Positions 17,071-25,589 of a DNA stretch of 64,000 nt are shown in pieces. Under the pieces are notes generated by a model. It did not search any database. It had not been told where the DNA came from and saw only the letters and a program-made list of their open reading frames with translations. Each line of letters begins with the position of its first letter. Position 1 is the stretch's first letter. The position numbers were made by a program, and so were the translations under genes. The stretch is from an uncultured Gemmatimonadales bacterium. GTDB taxonomy: Bacteria > Gemmatimonadota > Gemmatimonadetes > Longimicrobiales > RSA9. The stretch covers positions 339,402-403,401 of the forward strand of contig CAWCUS010000005.1 of assembly GCA_963798845.1 (NCBI GenBank), in the 5' to 3' direction.

Positions 17071-18603
17071 ATGCCGCAGCCACATCGATCGTTCCCGACC
17101 GTCCTCGCGCTGGCGGCGCTCCCGCTGTGGGCGTGCGACCACGAGGCCACCGCTCCGCGCGTTCCGCCCGACGTGGCCGGGGCGGTGGCCACGATCACCG
17201 CCGCCGACGTGGCCGGGCGGGTGGGGATCATCGCGGATGACAGCATGGGCGGGCGGAACACGCCGAGCCCGGGACTCGAGGCCACGGCGTCGTACATGGC
17301 GTCGGAGCTCGAGGCCATGGGGCTGGAAGCATCCGGCACCGGGTACATACAGCGCTACCCGTTCGCGTACCCGGTGCGGGACGACGCCAGCCTCCTGCTG
17401 GAGCTGGCCGTCGGGCAGACGCCGGCGCTGGAGGTCGGGCGCGACCTCGTGATGTTCGGGGCGGCGCCGGAGCGCGGCGACACGGTGGGCCGGATCGTCT
17501 GGGGCGGCCCCGCGTCGGACCCGGAGGCGCCGGGCCGGCTCGGCGTGCCTCTGGCCGGCCGGGTCGTGCTGTACGACCTGCCCGTGTCCCGGTACGACCT
17601 GGCCGCGGTCCTGGCGACGACCGGCGCGCAGCAGGCGGCGATCGAGGGCGACGCGGCGGCGATCGGCTTCGTGGTGGGTCCCGGGTTCGGCGAGCAGGAG
17701 ATGGCCGCCGCGCTCGCGCGCAGTCCCCGCCACGAGCGGTGGATCCCGGAGTTCTGGATCCGGCAGCCTGCGGCGGAGGCGCTGCTCTCGGCCGCGGGAG
17801 CCGACCTGGCGTCCCTCCGGTCGGGTGCGCCGCGGGTCCTGGACGACTCCCTGCGCGTGCGCGCGCTCCTGGCGGAGGCGACGGCGCTGGCGCCCAACGT
17901 GGTGGCCGTGCTGCCCGGCTCCGATCCGTCGCTGCGCGCCGAGTACGTGGTCGTGTCGGCCCACTACGACCACCTCGGGATCGGGTTGGCGGACGCGACC
18001 GGGGACTCGATCTACAACGGCGCCGACGACAACGGGTCCGGGACCACCGCCGTGCTCGAGGTCGCGGAAGCGATGGCGTCGCTGGAGACCCCGCCCGCCC
18101 GGTCACTCCTCTTCCTCCTGGTGAGCGGCGAGGAGCGCGGGCTCATCGGGTCCTCGTACTTCGCCCGGCACCCGACCGTGCCGCTGTCGAGCATCGTCGC
18201 CGACATCAACCTGGACATGGTCGGGCGCAACGATCCGGCCGAGGTGATCGGCGTGGGCAGCGAGTACACCAGCCTCGGCGACCTCGCCACTTCGCTCGCC
18301 CGCGACACCGACGCCCTGGGGCTCAGCGTCCTCCCCGACCTCGCGCCCGACGAGCACCTGTTCTTCCGCAGCGACCAGCTCGTGTTCGCCTGCCGCGAAA
18401 TCCCCTCCCTCTTCTTCACCGACGGGGGCCACGCCGACTACCACACCGTGAGCGACGAGGTGGACAGGCTCGACACCGACAAGATCGCCCGCGTCGCGAG
18501 GCTGGCGTTCTACCTCGCCTACGACGTGGCGGACGCGAAGGACCCGCCGACGTGGACGTCCGCCGGGCGAGCGGCGCTGAGCGAGAACGTGAGGTGCCCG
18601 TGA
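17071..18603 (+). CDS. M28 family metallopeptidase, lipoprotein
   Basis: Lipobox LWAC; SAHYDHLG, NGADDNGSG, SGEERG, NLDM, RSD and YH zinc-site motifs. Confidence 0.92.
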   Translation: MPQPHRSFPTVLALAALPLWACDHEATAPRVPPDVAGAVATITAADVAGRVGIIADDSMGGRNTPSPGLEATASYMASELEAMGLEASGTGYIQRYPFAYPVRDDASLLLELAVGQTPALEVGRDLVMFGAAPERGDTVGRIVWGGPASDPEAPGRLGVPLAGRVVLYDLPVSRYDLAAVLATTGAQQAAIEGDAAAIGFVVGPGFGEQEMAAALARSPRHERWIPEFWIRQPAAEALLSAAGADLASLRSGAPRVLDDSLRVRALLAEATALAPNVVAVLPGSDPSLRAEYVVVSAHYDHLGIGLADATGDSIYNGADDNGSGTTAVLEVAEAMASLETPPARSLLFLLVSGEERGLIGSSYFARHPTVPLSSIVADINLDMVGRNDPAEVIGVGSEYTSLGDLATSLARDTDALGLSVLPDLAPDEHLFFRSDQLVFACREIPSLFFTDGGHADYHTVSDEVDRLDTDKIARVARLAFYLAYDVADAKDPPTWTSAGRAALSENVRCP

Positions 18604-19179
18604 ACTGGAGCCGGAAGGAAGTCGAGCGAAGGTGCCTGGCGACCTCCGACGCGGCGAGGGTGCCGAGCCACGGGGTGGTGCTGGTGCGGGCGGTGGGGCA
18701 GTAAGGGCGACGCCACCAACCGTGGCACATCGACGGACTCAATGATGGGCGGCGGAGCAGGCGGAGGAATGGCGCGGCGGGACGCATCGGGAGGCGGGCG
18801 TCCAGCCACAACGCCGTGGCGGCGCACGGCAGGTCCCCCCGACGGGGGTCGATGCCGCTTCCGGCCTCGGCAACCGACCACTCGCTGCGGGCTCCGGGGT
18901 GAGTGGTCGCTCTGCGGCGGTGAGAGGCCCTGAATCGACCACTCGATCTCAGGCTGGTCGAACGAGTGGGCACTTTCAGGCCCCAGGGACCGCCAACCGA
19001 CCAATCGACCGCCGAGCTGCCGCGTGTGGTCAGGAAGCAACGCACGGCCGGCCCACGCGCCGCCGCGCCACGGGGCGGTGCGGGTGCGGGTCAGCCGTCC
19101 GCCATGGAGAGACGGACCTCGTTGACAAATGTTTCCACCTGAGGTAACGAGCGGCCGTCAGCACCGCAGTCTTGCGGCC

Positions 19180-19199
19180 TGTGTACAACCGTGCACACA
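19180..19199. promoter_or_regulatory. Palindromic operator upstream of brnTA
   Basis: TGTGTACA-ACCG-TGCACACA (one mismatch), 5 bp before the brnT start. Confidence 0.55.
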
Positions 19200-19204
19200 T
19201 TCAA

Positions 19205-19480
19205 GTGCATTAGGAGTGGGATCCGGCGAAGGCGACATCGAACCAGCAGAAGCACGGCGTTCGATTTGCGGACGCCATCGGCGTGTTCTCGGATGCCCGG
19301 GCGCTGGTGATGCGCGACTCGCGCCAGGACGACGAGCGGTACGTGGTCCTTGGCCTTCACGCGCTGGGGCGCCTCCTCGTAGTCGTCTACACGTGGCGCG
19401 GCCCGGACAGGATCCGCCTCATCTCCGCGCGCCCCGCCACGCGAACGGAAGCGCGGCAGTACGCGGGAGGAAGTCCGTGA
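19205..19480 (+). pseudogene. brnT: BrnT family toxin with an in-frame TAG at codon 3
   Basis: GTG CAT TAG GAG TGG GAT = VH*EWDPAKATSNQQKHGVRFADA...ERYVVLG...LLVVVYT.R...IRLISAR.AT. Confidence 0.8.
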
Positions 19481-19731
19481 ACAGAGAATACGACTTCAGC
19501 AGCACGCGCCGCGGCCCCATCAATGTGCCTCCGGCGGGCAAGACCCGGGTGACGATCCGGCTGGACAACGACGTCCTGGACTGGTTCCGCGACCAGGTCA
19601 ATGCGGCGGGCGGGGGCAACTACCAGACGCTGATCAACGCGGCGCTCCGCGACTACATCGGAAGGGCCGAAGAGCCGCTCGAGGAGATGCTCCGGCGCGT
19701 GGTGCGCGAGGAGTTGGGTCGCAGCGCCTGA
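19477..19731 (+). CDS. brnA: BrnA family antitoxin
   Basis: EYDFS...KTRVTIRLDNDVLDWFR...GNYQTLINAALRDY; GTGA overlap with brnT. Confidence 0.9.
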   Translation: MNREYDFSSTRRGPINVPPAGKTRVTIRLDNDVLDWFRDQVNAAGGGNYQTLINAALRDYIGRAEEPLEEMLRRVVREELGRSA

Positions 19732-19764
19732 GGCGATCCCGAATGTGCTCCCGGGCGACGGCGC

Positions 19765-20224
19765 AACGGAAGGCGCGGAAAAAGAACCGGGCCGTGGGCC
19801 GGGCTCTCGTCGCGAAGGAACTCGCTCGTATCGTCTACCATGTCCTCTCGAAGCGGGAGGACTTCAACCATCGCTTCAAAGGCATCCCGCTCCAGCGGCG
19901 GAAAAAGCAGGAGTGGCCACGTCGGTCAAGCCCGGGCAGCTAACTGGATCGGCTTTCGCCGAGTACCGCCCCGTTTGATTGGGAAGACCGACGTCGAGCC
20001 GCCGGACGTATCTGGGACCGCTCCGCAGAGCGACCGCTGAAATGAGCAGCGGTGAGCCCGAAATGGTGTTTGGACGCCACTCCACGTCCGATTCGATACC
20101 CACTCCGGCCCGGCCAGACCTGCCGTCGCTCGCGGAATCGAGAAGCGTCGCACGATCGAAAAGCGAATCAGAATCTCTGATTCCGCACAGATCATCGTGC
20201 TCCTTGACGAAGGACTTGTTAATG
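19765..20224 (+). mobile_element. IS110/IS1111-family remnant: transposase C-terminus plus about 280 bp of right non-coding end
   Basis: RKARKKNRAVGRALVAKELARIVYHVL.KREDF resembles IS110 C-termini; downstream hairpin-rich region ends in TTGACG-N-TTGTTAATG next to an attC inverse core. Confidence 0.7.
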
Positions 20225-20227
20225 GTG

Positions 20228-20758
20228 TTATCCGCTGTTGGCTCCGCTCTGCGCATCGCCTCGCCCGACGCTCCTGACCCACCGCTTCAGCACCTTGCAC
20301 GCAAAGCGGTAGTGGCTCGCCGTGTTCGCGCCAAGGTAGGTCACCAACGCGTTCGTTCCGGTCCAGCCAAACGTGCCGGGCTTCAGAAGCTCGTCCGTCG
20401 ATGCCTGCCGAGCCAAGTCCAAGACTCTTGCATGCGAAGCCTCGAGTTCTCCCCACAGTTCATCGCTCAGGCGATCCCTATGCTTCTCCTGGATGTCCCG
20501 GTTCAACCTCGGCGTTTCATTCCACCTGTAGCCAGGGGCCGGCATCGCAGGAACCCGGCCATCAAGGCCGGCGCGATGCCACCCCAGGAAGAGCGTGTGC
20601 CATTCCGTCAGGTGTGCCAGGAGGTCGTTGACGGTCCAATCCTCACCCCACACCCCTGGTTCGGAGTACCTCCGGGGGATTCTCTCCAGACACTCCCGTA
20701 GCGTAGAAAACTGGTCTTCGATATCCCGGATCAACTGCTGCTTGGACGCGTATCTCAC
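20228..20758 (-). CDS. ClbS/DfsB family (DinB-superfamily four-helix bundle) protein, cassette 3
   Basis: SKQQLI..., WTVNDLLAHLTEW...W, PAPGYRWN, NTASHY; stop TAA lies inside the GGATAAC inverse core. Confidence 0.85.
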   Translation of the reverse strand: MRYASKQQLIRDIEDQFSTLRECLERIPRRYSEPGVWGEDWTVNDLLAHLTEWHTLFLGWHRAGLDGRVPAMPAPGYRWNETPRLNRDIQEKHRDRLSDELWGELEASHARVLDLARQASTDELLKPGTFGWTGTNALVTYLGANTASHYRFACKVLKRWVRSVGRGDAQSGANSG

Positions 20759-20804
20759 TGAGATCCCCTTTGATCACCCGACTGGCGGCCAAGGAGCCAA
20801 TTGC

Positions 20805-20955
20805 GGATAACGTCTCCAGGTTGGCGACCCGCCGCGCCGATACCTCTAGCACGCGATCACCTTCGAAACAGCGGCAGCCTCACCAGCTTCAACACGGTCG
20901 CGGCGGGTTCTCCGGAGCGGCCGCAGGCCGCGCAGGCGCCAACCGTTTGTTAACC
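20805..20955 (-). mobile_element. Integron attC site (151 bp)
   Basis: Minus strand GGTTAAC-AAAC-GGTTGGCG...CGCCAACC-TGGAGAC-GTTATCC; imperfect palindrome, homologous to 21569-21719. Confidence 0.88.
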
Positions 20956-20984
20956 GCCGTGTTCTGCCCGCAGCCTGGCGGACG

Positions 20985-21281
20985 TCACCTCCGGGCCTGC
21001 CAACGCTTCGGATCGCGGCGGGAATGGAAAACGGAGAGTACCACGATCTCTTCCGCGCTCACTCTGAAGAGAATGGCATATGGGAATCGCCGAACAACGG
21101 CCCTCCGGACATCCCGATACAGAATGGGAAATCGGAGAGGATTCCGCTGGATCGCTGAGAAAGCCGCATCAATGACGCGGACGAATTCCGCTCCCAAGCC
21201 CAAGGAACGCTCCGAATACCACGCTGCGGCTTCCTCGAGTTCGGCGTCGGCCGCAGGGCGAACAACGAAGCGGCGGCTCAC
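20985..21281 (-). CDS. ParE/RelE family toxin, cassette 2
   Basis: AELEEAAAWY.ERSLGLGAEF...NPLRFP...RRAVVRRFPYAILF...VLSVFHSRRDP. Confidence 0.9.
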   Translation of the reverse strand: MSRRFVVRPAADAELEEAAAWYSERSLGLGAEFVRVIDAAFSAIQRNPLRFPILYRDVRRAVVRRFPYAILFRVSAEEIVVLSVFHSRRDPKRWQARR

Positions 21282-21502
21282 CCGTACTTCTTGTACAACC
21301 GCTCCCGGACTTCCTCCCAGGGAAGAGCAGAATCCGGGTCCGCTTCATGTTCTGCCAGCCTACGGTCCAGTTCCGCCTTCTGGGCCTCAGTTAATGGATA
21401 GGCGTCCGCGTCCGTAGCGATGCTGTCCCACAGGTCCTCCACCAACTGAATCCGCTCAGCGACCGACAGCTTGAGCAGTTCCTCGATTGGTACACTCGAC
21501 AT
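21278..21502 (-). CDS. Addiction-module antitoxin (TIGR02574-like), cassette 2
   Basis: LSVAERIQLVEDLWDSI...LTEAQKAELDRRL...P...PWEEV; GTGA overlap with the toxin; AAGGAG RBS. Confidence 0.88.
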   Translation of the reverse strand: MSSVPIEELLKLSVAERIQLVEDLWDSIATDADAYPLTEAQKAELDRRLAEHEADPDSALPWEEVRERLYKKYG

Positions 21503-21568
21503 CCGCAAGCTCCTTCCCTGAAGTCCCTTGCTCCTAATCTGCTACAGAAACGCCGAGTGGAACATGGC

Positions 21569-21719
21569 GGTTAACGTTTCCAGGTTGGCGACCCGCCCCG
21601 CCGAGGCCTCCAGCGCGAGATCACCTTCGAAACAACGCGAACCTCACCAGCACCAAGAAACTCGCGGCGGGTTCTCCGGAGCTCGCGAAGCGAGCGAAGG
21701 CGCCAACCGTTTGTTATCT
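21569..21719 (-). mobile_element. Integron attC site (151 bp)
   Basis: Minus strand AGATAAC-AAAC-GGTTGGCG...CGCCAACC-TGGAAAC-GTTAACC. Confidence 0.88.
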
Positions 21720-21748
21720 GCCGCTGGCCTCTTTCCCGATCCAGGCCT

Positions 21749-22668
21749 CTATTGCTCCGCCACCTGGAAGTAATCCGAATCAAGCCGCTTGATCTCGTAC
21801 TTCTCGACTCGGGCGACACCGACGTCGTGGTCGATCATCAAACCAGCCAGCGTTGCGCCGTCGACGAGGATGATCTTGTTGTCGATGTTCTCAGCGTACT
21901 TTGTGGCTTCAGCGGAAAAGGACGAGCTGGTGATAAAGATCCCCTTCTTCGCTCGCACCCCTTGTAGTGCACCGGCAAACTTCTGGATCTCCGGGCGCCC
22001 TACGGTCCCCTCCCACCGCTTTGCCTGGATGTCAGATGACGTCCAGGCCCAGCCGTATCCTCCTTGATGATACCGTCAATCCCTCCGTCACCTGATTTCC
22101 CGACTGCTCGTCCTGCATCGGCCCTGGATCCGCCGTACCCCATCGCTACGAGCAGTTCAACAACCAGGCGCTCGAAGAATTCAGGGGGGCACTTCGCGAC
22201 TTCGTCGAGGATATCAGAGACCAGCTTCTTCCGGATCTCTGAATAGCCGTACTCCAGGTGCTCCTCAGGCGTCAGATCATCCGCGCCCGCCGGCACCTCC
22301 TTCGAACCGGTGCCGTTCTCGGATTTGCCAGAACGGAACTCGAGGTACTCCGGGTAACCCTTCAGCTGAGCCATACCGATCGGGCCAGGATGGTTCTGGA
22401 GCAGTACCCTGCCTCGTTCGGTAATCCGATAGACGGCGCGTTGCGGTGCCTCGATCAAGCCCGCCCCCTTCAGGTGACTCTTGGCCCAAGCCACTCTGTT
22501 GACAAAGACCGGTTGCTTTCCACTCGGAAGCAGCTCCGAACGCTCTTCGTCAGTGACCTCGAAGTGCTTCGCCATGGCCTCGAGAGTATCCTGATTCGGC
22601 CTCGGCGCTCCGTCAGAAAGGTGCTCCAGAAGGGGTCTCATCAAGGACTGGAAATCAGGAATCGGCAT
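21749..22668 (-). CDS. mrr: Mrr type IV restriction endonuclease, cassette 1; two +1 indels (22056, 22033)
   Basis: MPIPDFQSLMRPLL, NRVAWAKSHL, FFERLVVELL, DGGIDG; removing the two extra bases restores KEDRLGLDVIYIQAKRW...KGIFITSS. Confidence 0.9.
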
Positions 22669-22703
22669 ATCTCATCTCATAGACTCTTATGTTGTTGGCC
22701 AGT

Positions 22704-22780
22704 GGCAGATAACTACTTGTTCCCGAACTCACGGTCGGCAATATCACACCCGCGCGTTGTATTCCCGAACCTTATGTTCG
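22704..22780 (-). mobile_element. attI-like site at the head of the cassette array
   Basis: Minus strand CGGGAAC-AAGTA-GTTATCT (L box, 5-nt spacer, core), with GTTCGGGAA direct repeats at 22720-22728 and 22762-22770. Confidence 0.6.
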
Positions 22781-25589
22781 CTAATCCCCCACCAGCCCCC
22801 CGAACACCACCCCGAACGTCCCCCAGGTCTGGCCGCGGTGCTGGGGGCGGAATCCGATGAGCACCACGCGTCCCTTGCCGTGCTCGACGCTCACCATGGC
22901 GGCTTTCTCGGAGAGGACGTCCTCGCCGATGAGCCAGCCGCTCTGGAGGATGTTCTCCTGGTCGGTGCCCTCGCCCGCTTCGGGGAAGGTGATGACGCGG
23001 TGGACGCGCTCGCTGTGGGCGCCGGGGACGGTCTCGTACGCGCGGCTGTCGCCGGTGAAGAGGACGAGGGCGCGGGCGGGCATGCCGTAGACGAGGGGGT
23101 CGGTTGTGTCCACGTCGACGCGCAGCATGGAGCCGGGGCACCAGAACTCCTTCGATGACAGGCCGTCGTTCACGACCCGGACGGGGAGGTTGAAGCCGTC
23201 AATGGCGAGGTCGCCGGCCTGGCCGAAGGTCATGAGGGTGCCGCCGTCGCGGACGAACTGCTCGAGGGCCTTCACCCCCTCGTCGCCGAAGCCGCTCCGG
23301 TACTCGGGCGGCGTGTTCTCCAGGTAGCGGGCGTAGCGGCCGGCGAGCTGGCCGGGCGCCGAGCCCGGGCCCTTCATCATCACCGGGTTGTCCGACGGCA
23401 GGACGATGACGTCGAAATCCTTGATCAGGCTGCCCTTCCTGATCCGCGCGTCGTCCAGCCCCTGGTACGGGAAGGCGAACCGCTCCAGCACCAGCCGCGT
23501 CCACCCCTCGTCCATGTTCCCGCCGTAATACCGGTGGTACAGCCCGATCCGCTGCCGCTCCACGGGCGAGGTGGAAGCGGGCTCGACGTCCAGCGCCTCG
23601 AACGAGACGTGCGTTTCCGCCGCGACCGCACGCAGCGCCGCGCCGTCGGCGTTGCCCGGAATCAGGAAGTCCCCGGTGTTGAAAAGTGTTCCTTCGTGCC
23701 CTTCGTTCCCTTCGAGCTCTTCGTGTCGACTGCTGTTCGAAGCTTCTGCGCCCGCGAACCCAGCCCGCACCCGCCGAACCTGAACGCCCCGGTCAAGGAG
23801 CCTGTTCACCGCCAGGTACGCCGCGTTCTCCCGCCCGTCGAGCCGATAGCCGTAAGAGCCCGCGGTGACCGATCCGGCTGGCTCGATCCCGGTGGTGACG
23901 TAAGGAAGCCGCTCCACGACGCGGACCTCGAAGTCGGGATGGATCACGCTGGTGCCCACGGTGACCGGGGTCCCGACGGGGACCGCTTCCACCCCCATGA
24001 ACTCCGCCATGTCGTGCGTCGCCAGGTCGTATGGCCGGATGGGGCTGCCATCGCGGTCCCGGGTGAACGCGTTGTCCGGGTAGAACGTGCGCCCCAGGAG
24101 CCAGCGGACCAGCCCGCGCTTGGGCTGCGCCATGGAGACCACCCAGGAGCCGCCGCCGTAGACGCGGCCTTCGTGGACGAAGTCGGACGTCGTCCGGCGG
24201 ACCTCGACGCCCTGCTGGAGCAGCTTGTTGACCATCTCGACGGCGGTGAGGCGGTCGTGCTGGTCGGCGGGGATGATGAAGGCGGCGACGGGCCCGGTGG
24301 GCCCGTTGTGGACGGGGGCGGCGGCGTCGCCCCGCTCGACCTGGCGGCGGGCCTTGAGGTAGTGGTTCTCGAGGACGGTGCGGCGGTTCTTCGCCGCCAT
24401 GTCGAGGAGGGCGAGCGACGCGATCTTCTGCATGTCCACGATGTCGCGCACGGTCCACCAGCCGCCCGGCCACGGGTCGGGGAACGTGTTCTGGGCGCGG
24501 TACTCCGGGATGCCGTGCTCGGGGTCGGCCTCGAGCTGGTCCGGCTGGACGAAGATCGGCCACGCCAGGTTGGCGCTGGCGGACTCGGTGAGCATGCCGG
24601 CGATGTTGTGGAAGGGCGTGATCCAGTGGAAGCCGAAGTGGCCCCAGCCGCCGTAGATGGCTGCGTTGGCGACGCCGCTCTTGCCGGCCGACTCCTCGTC
24701 GGCGGCGATGCGGGCGCCCCACCAGCTCATCTCGCGCCAGACCAGCGGGTCACCGTCGGGGCGGATCGGCTCGGCGTACGGCGGCACGTACATGCGCGGG
24801 CCGTACGCGCCCATCTGGTGGTGGTCCACGAACGCTTCGGGGACCCAGTCGCGGAACAGGATCTCGCCCGTCCACACGCTCTCGGCCGTGTTCTGCTGGA
24901 ACGCGTCCCGGTTGTTGTCGTGGCCGATGTAGGGGTGGTAGAGCCACGGCAGGCTGGCGCCCTGCCACTCCGTCCCCGCCGTCTTCCGCACCCAGTCCGC
25001 GACCATGGTGGTGCCGTCCGGGTTGAGCGACGGGAACAGGATGGCCACGTCCTGGTCCAGGATCCGGCGCATGGCGTCGTCGTCGCGGGTGGCCATGTCA
25101 TGGACCAGCTCCGCGGCGGTCTGCGTGGCCGCCACCTCCGTGGCGTGGAGGCCGTAGCTCTGGGCGACGATGGCCCGGCCGTTCTCGATGGCGTTCGCGA
25201 TCTCCGCGTCCGAGTGGCCCCGGGGGTCGGCGAGGACCAGGTTGAGCTGCCGCAGCTCCTCCAGCCGCGCCAGGTTCTCCGGCGACGAGACGAAGAGGAC
25301 GACGAACGGCTTCCCCAGCGTGCTCGGGCCCATCTCCCTCAGCATCACCCGCGGGCTGCGCTCGGCGACGAGGCGGTAGTAGGCGACGAGCTGGTCCCAG
25401 TCGGCGAGGCGGCCGTCGGCGCCCATGCGGAAGCCGAAGTGCTCCTCCGGCGACGGGATGGCGGCGGCTTGCGGGGCCTGGCGTCGCGGGGGGCGAGGGC
25501 TCCTGGGCGAGCGCGGGGGTGCCGAACGCCTGGACGAGGGTGACCACTGCGAGCACGAAAGCGGTGGACGCGAAGCGGGGGCGTCGCAT
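22781..25589 (-). CDS. Secreted M14 family zinc carboxypeptidase with C-terminal GATase1-like domain; frameshift near 25490
   Basis: LHATE, NPDG, DNNRD, DHHQMG and SDN motifs; the signal peptide MRRPRFASTAFVLAVV is in another frame, joined at a C homopolymer. Confidence 0.88.

Follow-up and report, generated by a model that had tools for sequence, protein, structure and literature searches.

A truncated IS1111-type insertion sequence with an intact predicted guide-RNA module at the end of a Gemmatimonadota cassette array

Introduction

Some insertion sequences of the IS1111 type are directed to attC, the site that accompanies the gene cassettes of integrons. ISKpn4, ISPst6 and ISPa25 target one end of attC and derive a seekRNA from the non-coding region found downstream of their transposase gene; within these seekRNAs the match to the top strand of the target lies 5' of the match to the bottom strand, and the concept of a seekRNA in attC-targeting IS1111 elements is already published (PMC11187229, in excerpt). 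Elements of this IS1111-attC group insert near the attC 5' end, antisense to the cassettes (PMC3001079, in excerpt). The bridge RNAs of IS1111 elements are located in the right end, and that of IS621 in the left end, upstream of the gene (PMC11208160, in excerpt). The right end of ISEc11 contains a −35 box at a distance of 17 nt from the joint, and its promoter is therefore complete only in the circle (PMC11187229, in excerpt).

Here we describe the remains of a related element in the window, by which we mean the whole 64-kb (64,000-nt) stretch of DNA analysed, from an uncultured Gemmatimonadales bacterium. As far as the excerpted sources describe it, and by features rather than by tree, the element is like the IS1111-attC group (ISPa21, ISPst6, ISKpn4 and ISPa25): intact copies have a DEDD transposase, subterminal inverted repeats and a long downstream non-coding region, insertion is at the attC 5' end and antisense to the cassettes, and the predicted RNA, like the IS1111-attC seekRNAs, carries the top-strand match 5' of the bottom-strand match. 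It differs from that group in its hosts, which are Gemmatimonadota, Rhodothermales, Neomarinimicrobiota and Calditrichota and not Pseudomonas or enterobacteria, and in its terminal extensions, of which the left measures 8 nt and the right 5 nt, followed by a 2-nt core, as against 7 and 3 in the excerpts of PMC11187229. A possible further difference is that the coding sequence here includes the right-target guide and a strand of helix P1. As in the IS621 bridge RNA, there are two modules with guides around a shared core dinucleotide, one strand being read on each side, and the core is common to donor joint and target (PMC11208160, in excerpt). Unlike in IS621, the RNA is downstream of the gene, the order of the guides is reversed, long subterminal repeats are present, and a search over 270 aligned columns gave no right-donor guide. 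Location near the attC 5' end, antisense to cassettes, is also a property of group IIC-attC introns (PMC3001079, in excerpt); these, however, are retroelements with a reverse transcriptase and a ribozyme, neither of which is present here.

Results

The right-hand part of an IS1111-type element

An insertion sequence of the IS1111 type (IS110 family) is represented at window positions 19765-20227 (+ strand) by its terminal 463 bp, which comprise the final 63 transposase codons, a complete bridge/seek-RNA module and the right end (Table 1). The 66-aa ORF at 19743-19943 has no Pfam match, while its peptide is up to 94% identical to the C-terminus of 338-aa IS110-family transposases and corresponds, at 94% identity, to residues 276-338 of the full-length relative P0001. 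Full-length relatives such as P0001 contain both DEDD_Tnp_IS110 (PF01548) and Transposase_20 (PF02371), and the residues kept in the window are C-terminal to both domains. A protein search among longer proteins returned 33 matches at E ≤0.01 from 87 candidates, nearly all of them IS110-family proteins of ~338 aa. The breakpoint at 19765 is the start of DNA homology both to the closest genomic relative (locus L014, 86% protein identity) and to a copy in another genome of the same genus (G008). Between the stop codon (19943) and the end of the element (20227) lie 284 nt that are conserved in relatives and homologous throughout to the non-coding region 3' of full-length transposases in other phyla. 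The sequence-only reading had proposed that the right end of an IS110/IS1111 element, opposite in orientation to the cassettes, sits in the attC of a ClbS cassette just after the inverse core, and that the peptide is that of an IS110 transposase; the match at the transposase C-terminus and the boundary boxes described below bear it out.

Table 1. Coordinates of the features in the window (module, helix and guide assignments are predictions)
Feature	Position	Strand	Details
Transposase gene 3' end	19765..19943	+	last ~60 codons; stop TAA 19941-19943; left breakpoint 19765
Target-binding module	19919..19994	+	P1 19919-19927/19986-19994; P1b CCC 19931-19933/GGG 19981-19983; P2 hairpin ~19947-19965
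Right-target guide GCAGCTAAC	19936..19944	+	overlaps stop codon; complementary to GTTAGCTGC
Left-target guide CCGTT + core TG	19971..19977	+	covariation with left flank; identical to intact attC sites
Donor-binding module	20008..20099	+	P4 GTATC 20008-20012/GATAC 20095-20099; P3 GGG 20014-20016/CCC 20057-20059
P3-enclosed hairpins	20019-20032 and 20033-20053	+	further hairpin 20072-20089
Internal 9-mer: donor guide AATGG, core TG, TT	20062..20070	+	equals own right end
Right end	20204..20227	+	TTGACG 20204-20209; repeat GGACTTGTT 20212-20220; extension AATGG 20221-20225; core TG 20226-20227
Inverse-core (R'') box, truncated attC of DUF1706/ClbS cassette	20228..20246	-	overlaps gene's stop codon; rest of attC missing
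Intact attC, ParE/antitoxin cassette	20800..20959	-	predicted insertion point between 20949 and 20950
Intact attC, Mrr cassette	21564..21723	-	predicted insertion point between 21713 and 21714

The remnant begins 34 nt downstream of brnA, on the same strand, and its left edge adjoins unrelated sequence. No left end, which would consist of the core TG, an extension of 8 nt such as ATCTTACC and AACAAG..., adjoins 19765, and of the two subterminal repeats this copy has lost the left and kept the right. In the assembly, which consists of 6 contigs and is 96.3% complete, the remnant DNA is single-copy; neither PF02371 nor PF01548 has a match anywhere in it, and a protein search of it with P0001 returned this piece, residues 276-338, as the sole match. 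The piece is immobile, since the assembly holds neither an IS110-family transposase nor a left end. It could be argued that it is instead a non-autonomous, MITE-like mini-element moved by the transposase of another copy, and an internally deleted derivative (L123) is indeed found beside full-length L117 in another genome of the host's family (G040). The window piece, however, is single-copy, has no left end or left subterminal repeat and at its left edge meets sequence unrelated to the element, and we consider such an origin highly unlikely.

The brnT-like gene and brnA, just left of the remnant at 19217-19731, are on the opposite strand to the cassettes. brnA is intact, and the brnT-like gene has no start codon, with TAG directly before the conserved EWDP, and is therefore 5'-truncated.

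The remnant abuts the last cassette of an array

An island at 20228-22713 has a G+C content of 58-62%, against 70-78% around it, and contains three minus-strand cassettes, which carry a frameshifted Mrr gene, a ParE toxin with its antitoxin and a DUF1706/ClbS-like gene (Pfam assignments; E 4.9e-41 for DUF1706). The ClbS cassette is the last of the three. Inverted pairs of 16-19 nt bracket each cassette (21713-21729/22697-22713, 20949-20964/21560-21575 and 20227-20245/20793-20811), and the ClbS-like gene ends at 20228 within the box GTTATCCGC, the inverted partner of 20793-20811 (19 nt, 89% complementary). It is this inverse-core box that the remnant, antisense to the cassettes, abuts. The two attC sites that are intact are ~160 nt each and 82% alike.

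The Mrr gene (21749-22668, − strand) is present as two ORFs, 22000-22668 and 21749-21958, a split that was probably caused by a frameshift. On the right-hand side of the first cassette, what follows GCAGATAAC (22697-22760) is unlike the two attC sites, and may represent a degenerate attI-like junction abutting the end of a 940-aa peptidase ORF. There is no integrase near the array. The best integron-integrase-like match in the genome (G000:C2:1322-2267, L108/L109) lies at the start of another contig and is split over two frames scoring 197 and 216 bits, the family cut-off being 265.

Relatives define the limits of the element

The comparison set comprised 104 related loci, 24 from species genomes and the best 80 from a metagenome scan in which at least 575 relatives were recognized among 603 candidate stretches. 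The genomic relatives come from Gemmatimonadota, from one Rhodothermales MAG (13 copies), from Neomarinimicrobiota and from Calditrichota. Among 1429 matching plasmid records, none encodes a protein with more than 33% identity to the transposase, and it is against these plasmid-borne relatives that the difference in sequence from the IS1111-attC group is measured; on this comparison the new subgroup considered possible in the sequence-only reading is plausible. A Pseudomonas plasmid relative (H12) is not within an integron, a blastn search of the region against plasmids gave no match, and a full-text literature search found no paper on this transposase clade.

In the Rhodothermales MAG, empty sites read ...CCGCAACATGCGCTTG/TTATAC, with GCGCTTG/TTATAC around the insertion point, and filled sites read ...ATGCGCTTG/ATATTTCC-AAGAAGGCC ... 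GGCCTTCTT-AAAGG-TG/TTATAC (slashes mark the insertion point). The comparison of the two gives the limits of the element, with a shared core TG on both sides. On the left of the relatives an 8-nt extension is followed by a subterminal repeat of 9-11 bp; on the right a subterminal repeat is followed by a 5-nt extension and the core. The flanking cassette ORFs of the Rhodothermales copies are antisense to the transposase, and a fixed position near the attC 5' end, antisense to the cassettes, holds for the window and for these copies. Location of homologues in attC sites is not universal: it agrees with the empty and filled Rhodothermales sites, but a strict test found a box-to-box, attC-like hairpin in no more than 14 of the 34 empty sites that were reconstituted, and some copies (L008, L010, L011 and L014) are in sites without a recognizable attC hairpin. 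A crude test for a contiguous stem was positive at 11 of 34 sites and, as a control, at 13 of 170 pseudo-sites taken from within the transposase gene, which is weak support. Upstream of the insertion, an exact inverse box was present in 1 of 33 cases, and one with a single mismatch in 6 of 33 (0.5 and 3.4 in shuffles), a test that is ill-suited to arrays because the right-hand half-box there belongs to the next cassette.

Three Rhodothermales loci (L004, L007 and L019; 1793-2797, + strand) encode a second, only distantly related IS110-family transposase, with PF01548 and PF02371 and 30% identity to P0001 over 128 aa, which ends just before the other box of these same attC sites (...GAGTATA/TAACGGCTGG). 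Two different IS110-family elements therefore occupy opposite ends of attC in one Rhodothermales genome.

A predicted two-module RNA that would begin inside the transposase gene

Structural alignment was based on 59 distinct sequences, with L037, L067, L076 and L079 left out owing to a misplaced stop-codon anchor. RNAalifold returned a consensus of 23 pairs in which 94.0% of cells are paired, against 81.9% in shuffles. Changes on both sides were seen in 170 cells, a number reached by none of 500 shuffles (56.7 ± 7.0, in which the relatedness of the elements is ignored), and slid controls gave 23-36. P1 is the strongest helix, with changes on both sides at seven of its eight pairs and 96.4% of cells paired; its 5' strand is inside the transposase coding sequence. 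P1b is an invariant CCC/GGG. Together with P2 these helices enclose an internal loop whose two strands are the right-target and left-target guides, and both P1 and P2 recur in the single-sequence fold of the window RNA. In the second module P3 is GC in 42 sequences and AU in 14. A perfect 6-bp partner for P4 is present in 19 of 62 distinct sequences within the 81-nt stretch 3' of the donor guide, where controls have a mean of 5.7 and a maximum of 12. In the consensus structure the donor guide is unpaired between P3 and the next hairpin. The covariation thus supports helices that would leave the guides unpaired.

The suggestion that the non-coding region holds a guide RNA stands in so far as the region is structured and its guides covary with DNA; its boundary moves, however, for the RNA would start at ~19919 within the coding sequence and not at 19944. 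Because the right-target guide overlaps the stop codon, the 5' part of the predicted RNA would be coding sequence. With a family-derived covariance model the window RNA obtains a score like that of full members (143.6 bits, E 3.2e-36), and the model matches nowhere else in the genome. No Rfam model matched positions 18500-23000 of the window at E up to 1.

Both hairpins named in the sequence-only reading are present. CCGCTG-N7-CAGCGG, at 20034-20052, is one of the two enclosed by P3, and GAATCAGA-ATC-TCTGATTC is at 20165-20183. As attC sites are rich in hairpins and the region abuts one, these repeats and hairpins could be put down to chance or to the attC itself and not to an RNA. In contrast with this view, the two copies of the 9-mer discussed below recur as a pair in none of 100 shuffles, the helices covary and, as noted above, the whole region is homologous to the non-coding region 3' of full-length transposases in other phyla. 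The cross-phylum homology and the helix covariation refute the attribution to chance or to attC, to which we assign next to no probability.

Two further structures were considered. The single-sequence fold of the window RNA (-80.9 kcal/mol, z -2.2) pairs UGGUGU of the 9-mer with ACGCCA, but the hairpin that would bury the 9-mer in this way does not covary: changes on both sides occur in 1 cell (0.4 expected; reached by 206 of 500 shuffles), and a T-to-A change in the guide is uncompensated in 21 sequences. An outer helix in the RNAalifold consensus (columns 5-9/230-234) varies mostly on one side and competes with a local hairpin after the donor guide, in which changes from CCAC/GUGG to CCGC/GCGG are seen by eye; in this model the outer helix may be spurious.

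On the minus strand, the GAATCAGA/TCTGATTC hairpin at 20165-20183 is followed by GCTTTTCGAT and scores as terminator-like. Two terminator-like sites were found where 1.0 ± 1.0 were expected, which is not significant.

Three guides covary with their DNA partners

Guide analysis was possible for 68 of 105 sources (67 loci and the window) that retain both RNA anchors and the right end; 37 were dropped, and the 68 collapse to 53 distinct guide sets. It should be emphasized that the shuffles used here ignore the relatedness of the elements and the following counts consequently overstate independence: the right-target guide (commonly GCCTAAC, compared as its reverse complement) agrees with the right flank (commonly GTTAGGC) at 296 of 432 positions in 48 pairs (shuffles 268.2 ± 6.0), the left-target guide, the 8 nt before a conserved TG-ATTGGG, agrees with the left flank at 215 of 328 positions in 41 pairs (144.6 ± 7.5), and the donor guide AAWGGTG, 20062-20068 in the window, agrees with the element's own last 7 nt at 358 of 364 positions in 52 pairs (331.2 ± 3.6), the observed value being reached in each case by 0 of 10000 shuffles. 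Single cases are free of this weakness. In L059, AG replaces TG in the left-target guide, the donor guide and the right end together; L041, at a GTTCAC site, has GUGAAC over the stop codon, and L037, at a GTCAC site, has GUGAC. Judged by these sequences, the three loci appear to be instances of natural reprogramming or retargeting.

In the window, the right-target guide matches the real flank (20227-20235) at 7 of 9 positions, and the intact attC sites at 8 of 9 (21713-21721) and 7 of 9 (20949-20957). As had been noticed from the letters, the CCGTTTG at 19971-19977 recurs exactly within both intact attC sites, at 20943-20949 and 21707-21713, where it is followed by TTA (20943-20952 and 21707-21716). 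The target guides are this CCGTTTG and the stop-codon stretch, the latter having been absent from the earlier reading.

The 9-mer AATGGTGTT, correctly reported to be identical to the junction, has exactly two occurrences in the 64 kb of the window (20062-20070 and 20221-20229). Its first 7 nt are donor end plus core, and its last two are the TT with which the attC core begins. Its proposed role as the guide that seeks the target is not upheld: AATGGTG tracks the element's own right end and is therefore the donor-side guide plus core. The prediction that the 9-mer would lie in a loop and covary with insertion sites survives in its first half, as the stem that would bury it lacks covariation and the guide is unpaired in the consensus, but its partner is the donor end and not the insertion site. 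In every row the third base of the donor guide is T in both places or A in both. Six elements with the right end GGCG keep GGUG in the RNA, which is compatible with a G-U pair to the bottom strand. For a left-end guide, all 270 alignment columns were compared with 14 left-end positions for complementarity and for identity; the signals were scattered and included no contiguous antiparallel run. The donor side is thus only half explained, because no guide to the left end was found.

The right end carries half of a predicted junction promoter

The layout of the right end is the same in the 67 related loci that have one. TTGACG lies 17 nt before the last base of the element. In L028, a metagenome contig of 1515 nt, a right end is joined to a left end through the core TG, and TTGACA-N17-GATACT spans the joint; such a contig could come from a circular intermediate, from tandem copies or from circular assembly. 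This joint suggests that the outward-facing TTGACG in the window, already remarked upon at the element's end, is the conserved −35 half of a predicted junction promoter. The arrangement of this predicted promoter is like that of ISEc11 in its 17-nt distance from the end. Unlike in the ISEc11 circle, the box in the window faces the 3' end of the ClbS gene across a poor −10. No promoter-like site was found in 19000-20400.

Decayed copies in the family of the host

The RNA model gives 8 matches in 7 of the 73 genomes of the host's family, and at least 5 of those 8 are truncated or decayed copies. L117 and L120 have a full-length transposase; the window copy, L119 and L121 are truncated, L118 is decayed and L123 is internally deleted, and L122 completes the set. 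L121 breaks off immediately upstream of the stop-codon guide, and the P1 5' strand has no clear partner; in L119 the donor guide is mutated. With truncated or decayed copies in the majority, reduction to a right-end stub is the usual fate in the host's family. This agrees with Tetu and Holmes (2008), who reportedly describe such leftovers where cassette arrays end. In L123, residues 39-75 are fused to residues 327-338 and most of the 3' non-coding region is lost.

The same-genus copy (positions 660-1821 of L118, G008:C1:847491-850683) is 99.1% identical to the window over 19765-20228. Its transposase gene is longer but broken, with internal deletions, a frameshift and loss of the left end, and on the right it adjoins a different, ParE-like cassette. 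The peptidase gene that flanks the array in the window is only 82% identical in G008 and is on another contig. An identity of 99.1% for the element against 82% for the peptidase places the arrival of the element, or of the array, at a recent date compared with the divergence of the two species. The identity also spans the dead coding part, which argues for recency and not for selection on the RNA.

These data bear on whether the orphan RNA has been kept for work in trans, being read through from brnTA and either loading an incoming related transposase, which it would bring to attC, or acting as a decoy. In favour of this, the RNA module is preserved in full with a score equal to that of full-length members, both intact attC sites are matched by its target guides, brnA is on the same strand and ends only 34 nt before the remnant, and seekRNAs are not rigorously confined to closely related transposases (PMC11187229, in excerpt). 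However, the assembly is without an IS110-family transposase, the search of 19000-20400 for promoter-like sites came back empty, and the near-identity of the G008 copy extends to dead coding sequence. Other remnants in the family, moreover, are cut at differing points, inside the RNA in L121, or have the donor guide mutated, as in L119, which fits neutral decay. The sequence-only suggestion that the RNA is usable in trans thus finds no support in the assembly. We regard retention for such work as very unlikely, and consider it equally improbable that the orphan module, through brnTA read-through, is a trans guide or decoy influencing re-invasion of attC by incoming elements. In this genome, where it is accompanied by neither a transposase nor a left end nor a further copy, the module is inert.

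Discussion

The stub in the window is an inert scar of an insertion sequence of a known, RNA-guided type, in which the predicted guide module is intact. The account that we consider very probable as a whole combines insertion of an IS1111-type element into the ClbS attC, a later deletion and an RNA-guided mode of action in the intact relatives. The element would have inserted antisense at the TG/TT step beside the inverse-core box of the DUF1706/ClbS attC; a deletion, an event that we infer, would later have removed the left end, ~275 transposase codons and the rest of the ClbS attC.

The mode of action proposed for the intact relatives builds on the observed anatomy, on the observed covariation of the three guides with their DNA partners and on that of the helices. 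Intact relatives would produce an RNA of ~180 nt that starts ~25 nt before the transposase stop codon and folds into two modules. In the first, the 5' strand of the loop, over the stop codon, would pair to the right of the core with the target's top strand, and the 3' strand of the loop would pair to the left of it with the bottom strand; the second would display a copy of the element's right-terminal sequence together with the core. The DEDD transposase and the RNA would bring the circular element, its ends joined through the core TG, to attC, and recombination would take place at the shared TG. By analogy with ISKpn4, ISPst6, ISEc11 and IS621, the RNA would be made, would bind the transposase and would guide recombination.

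With this family, the range of IS1111 elements that seek out attC comes to include environmental phyla in addition to Pseudomonas and clinical integrons. The relatives also form a comparative set from nature in which covariation reveals the three guides and the core dinucleotide; it includes predicted cases of retargeting and a change of the core from TG to AG, and would be useful for the reprogramming of IS1111-type recombinases. For the biology of integrons, the stub shows that such elements cap and truncate chromosomal cassette arrays in Gemmatimonadota.
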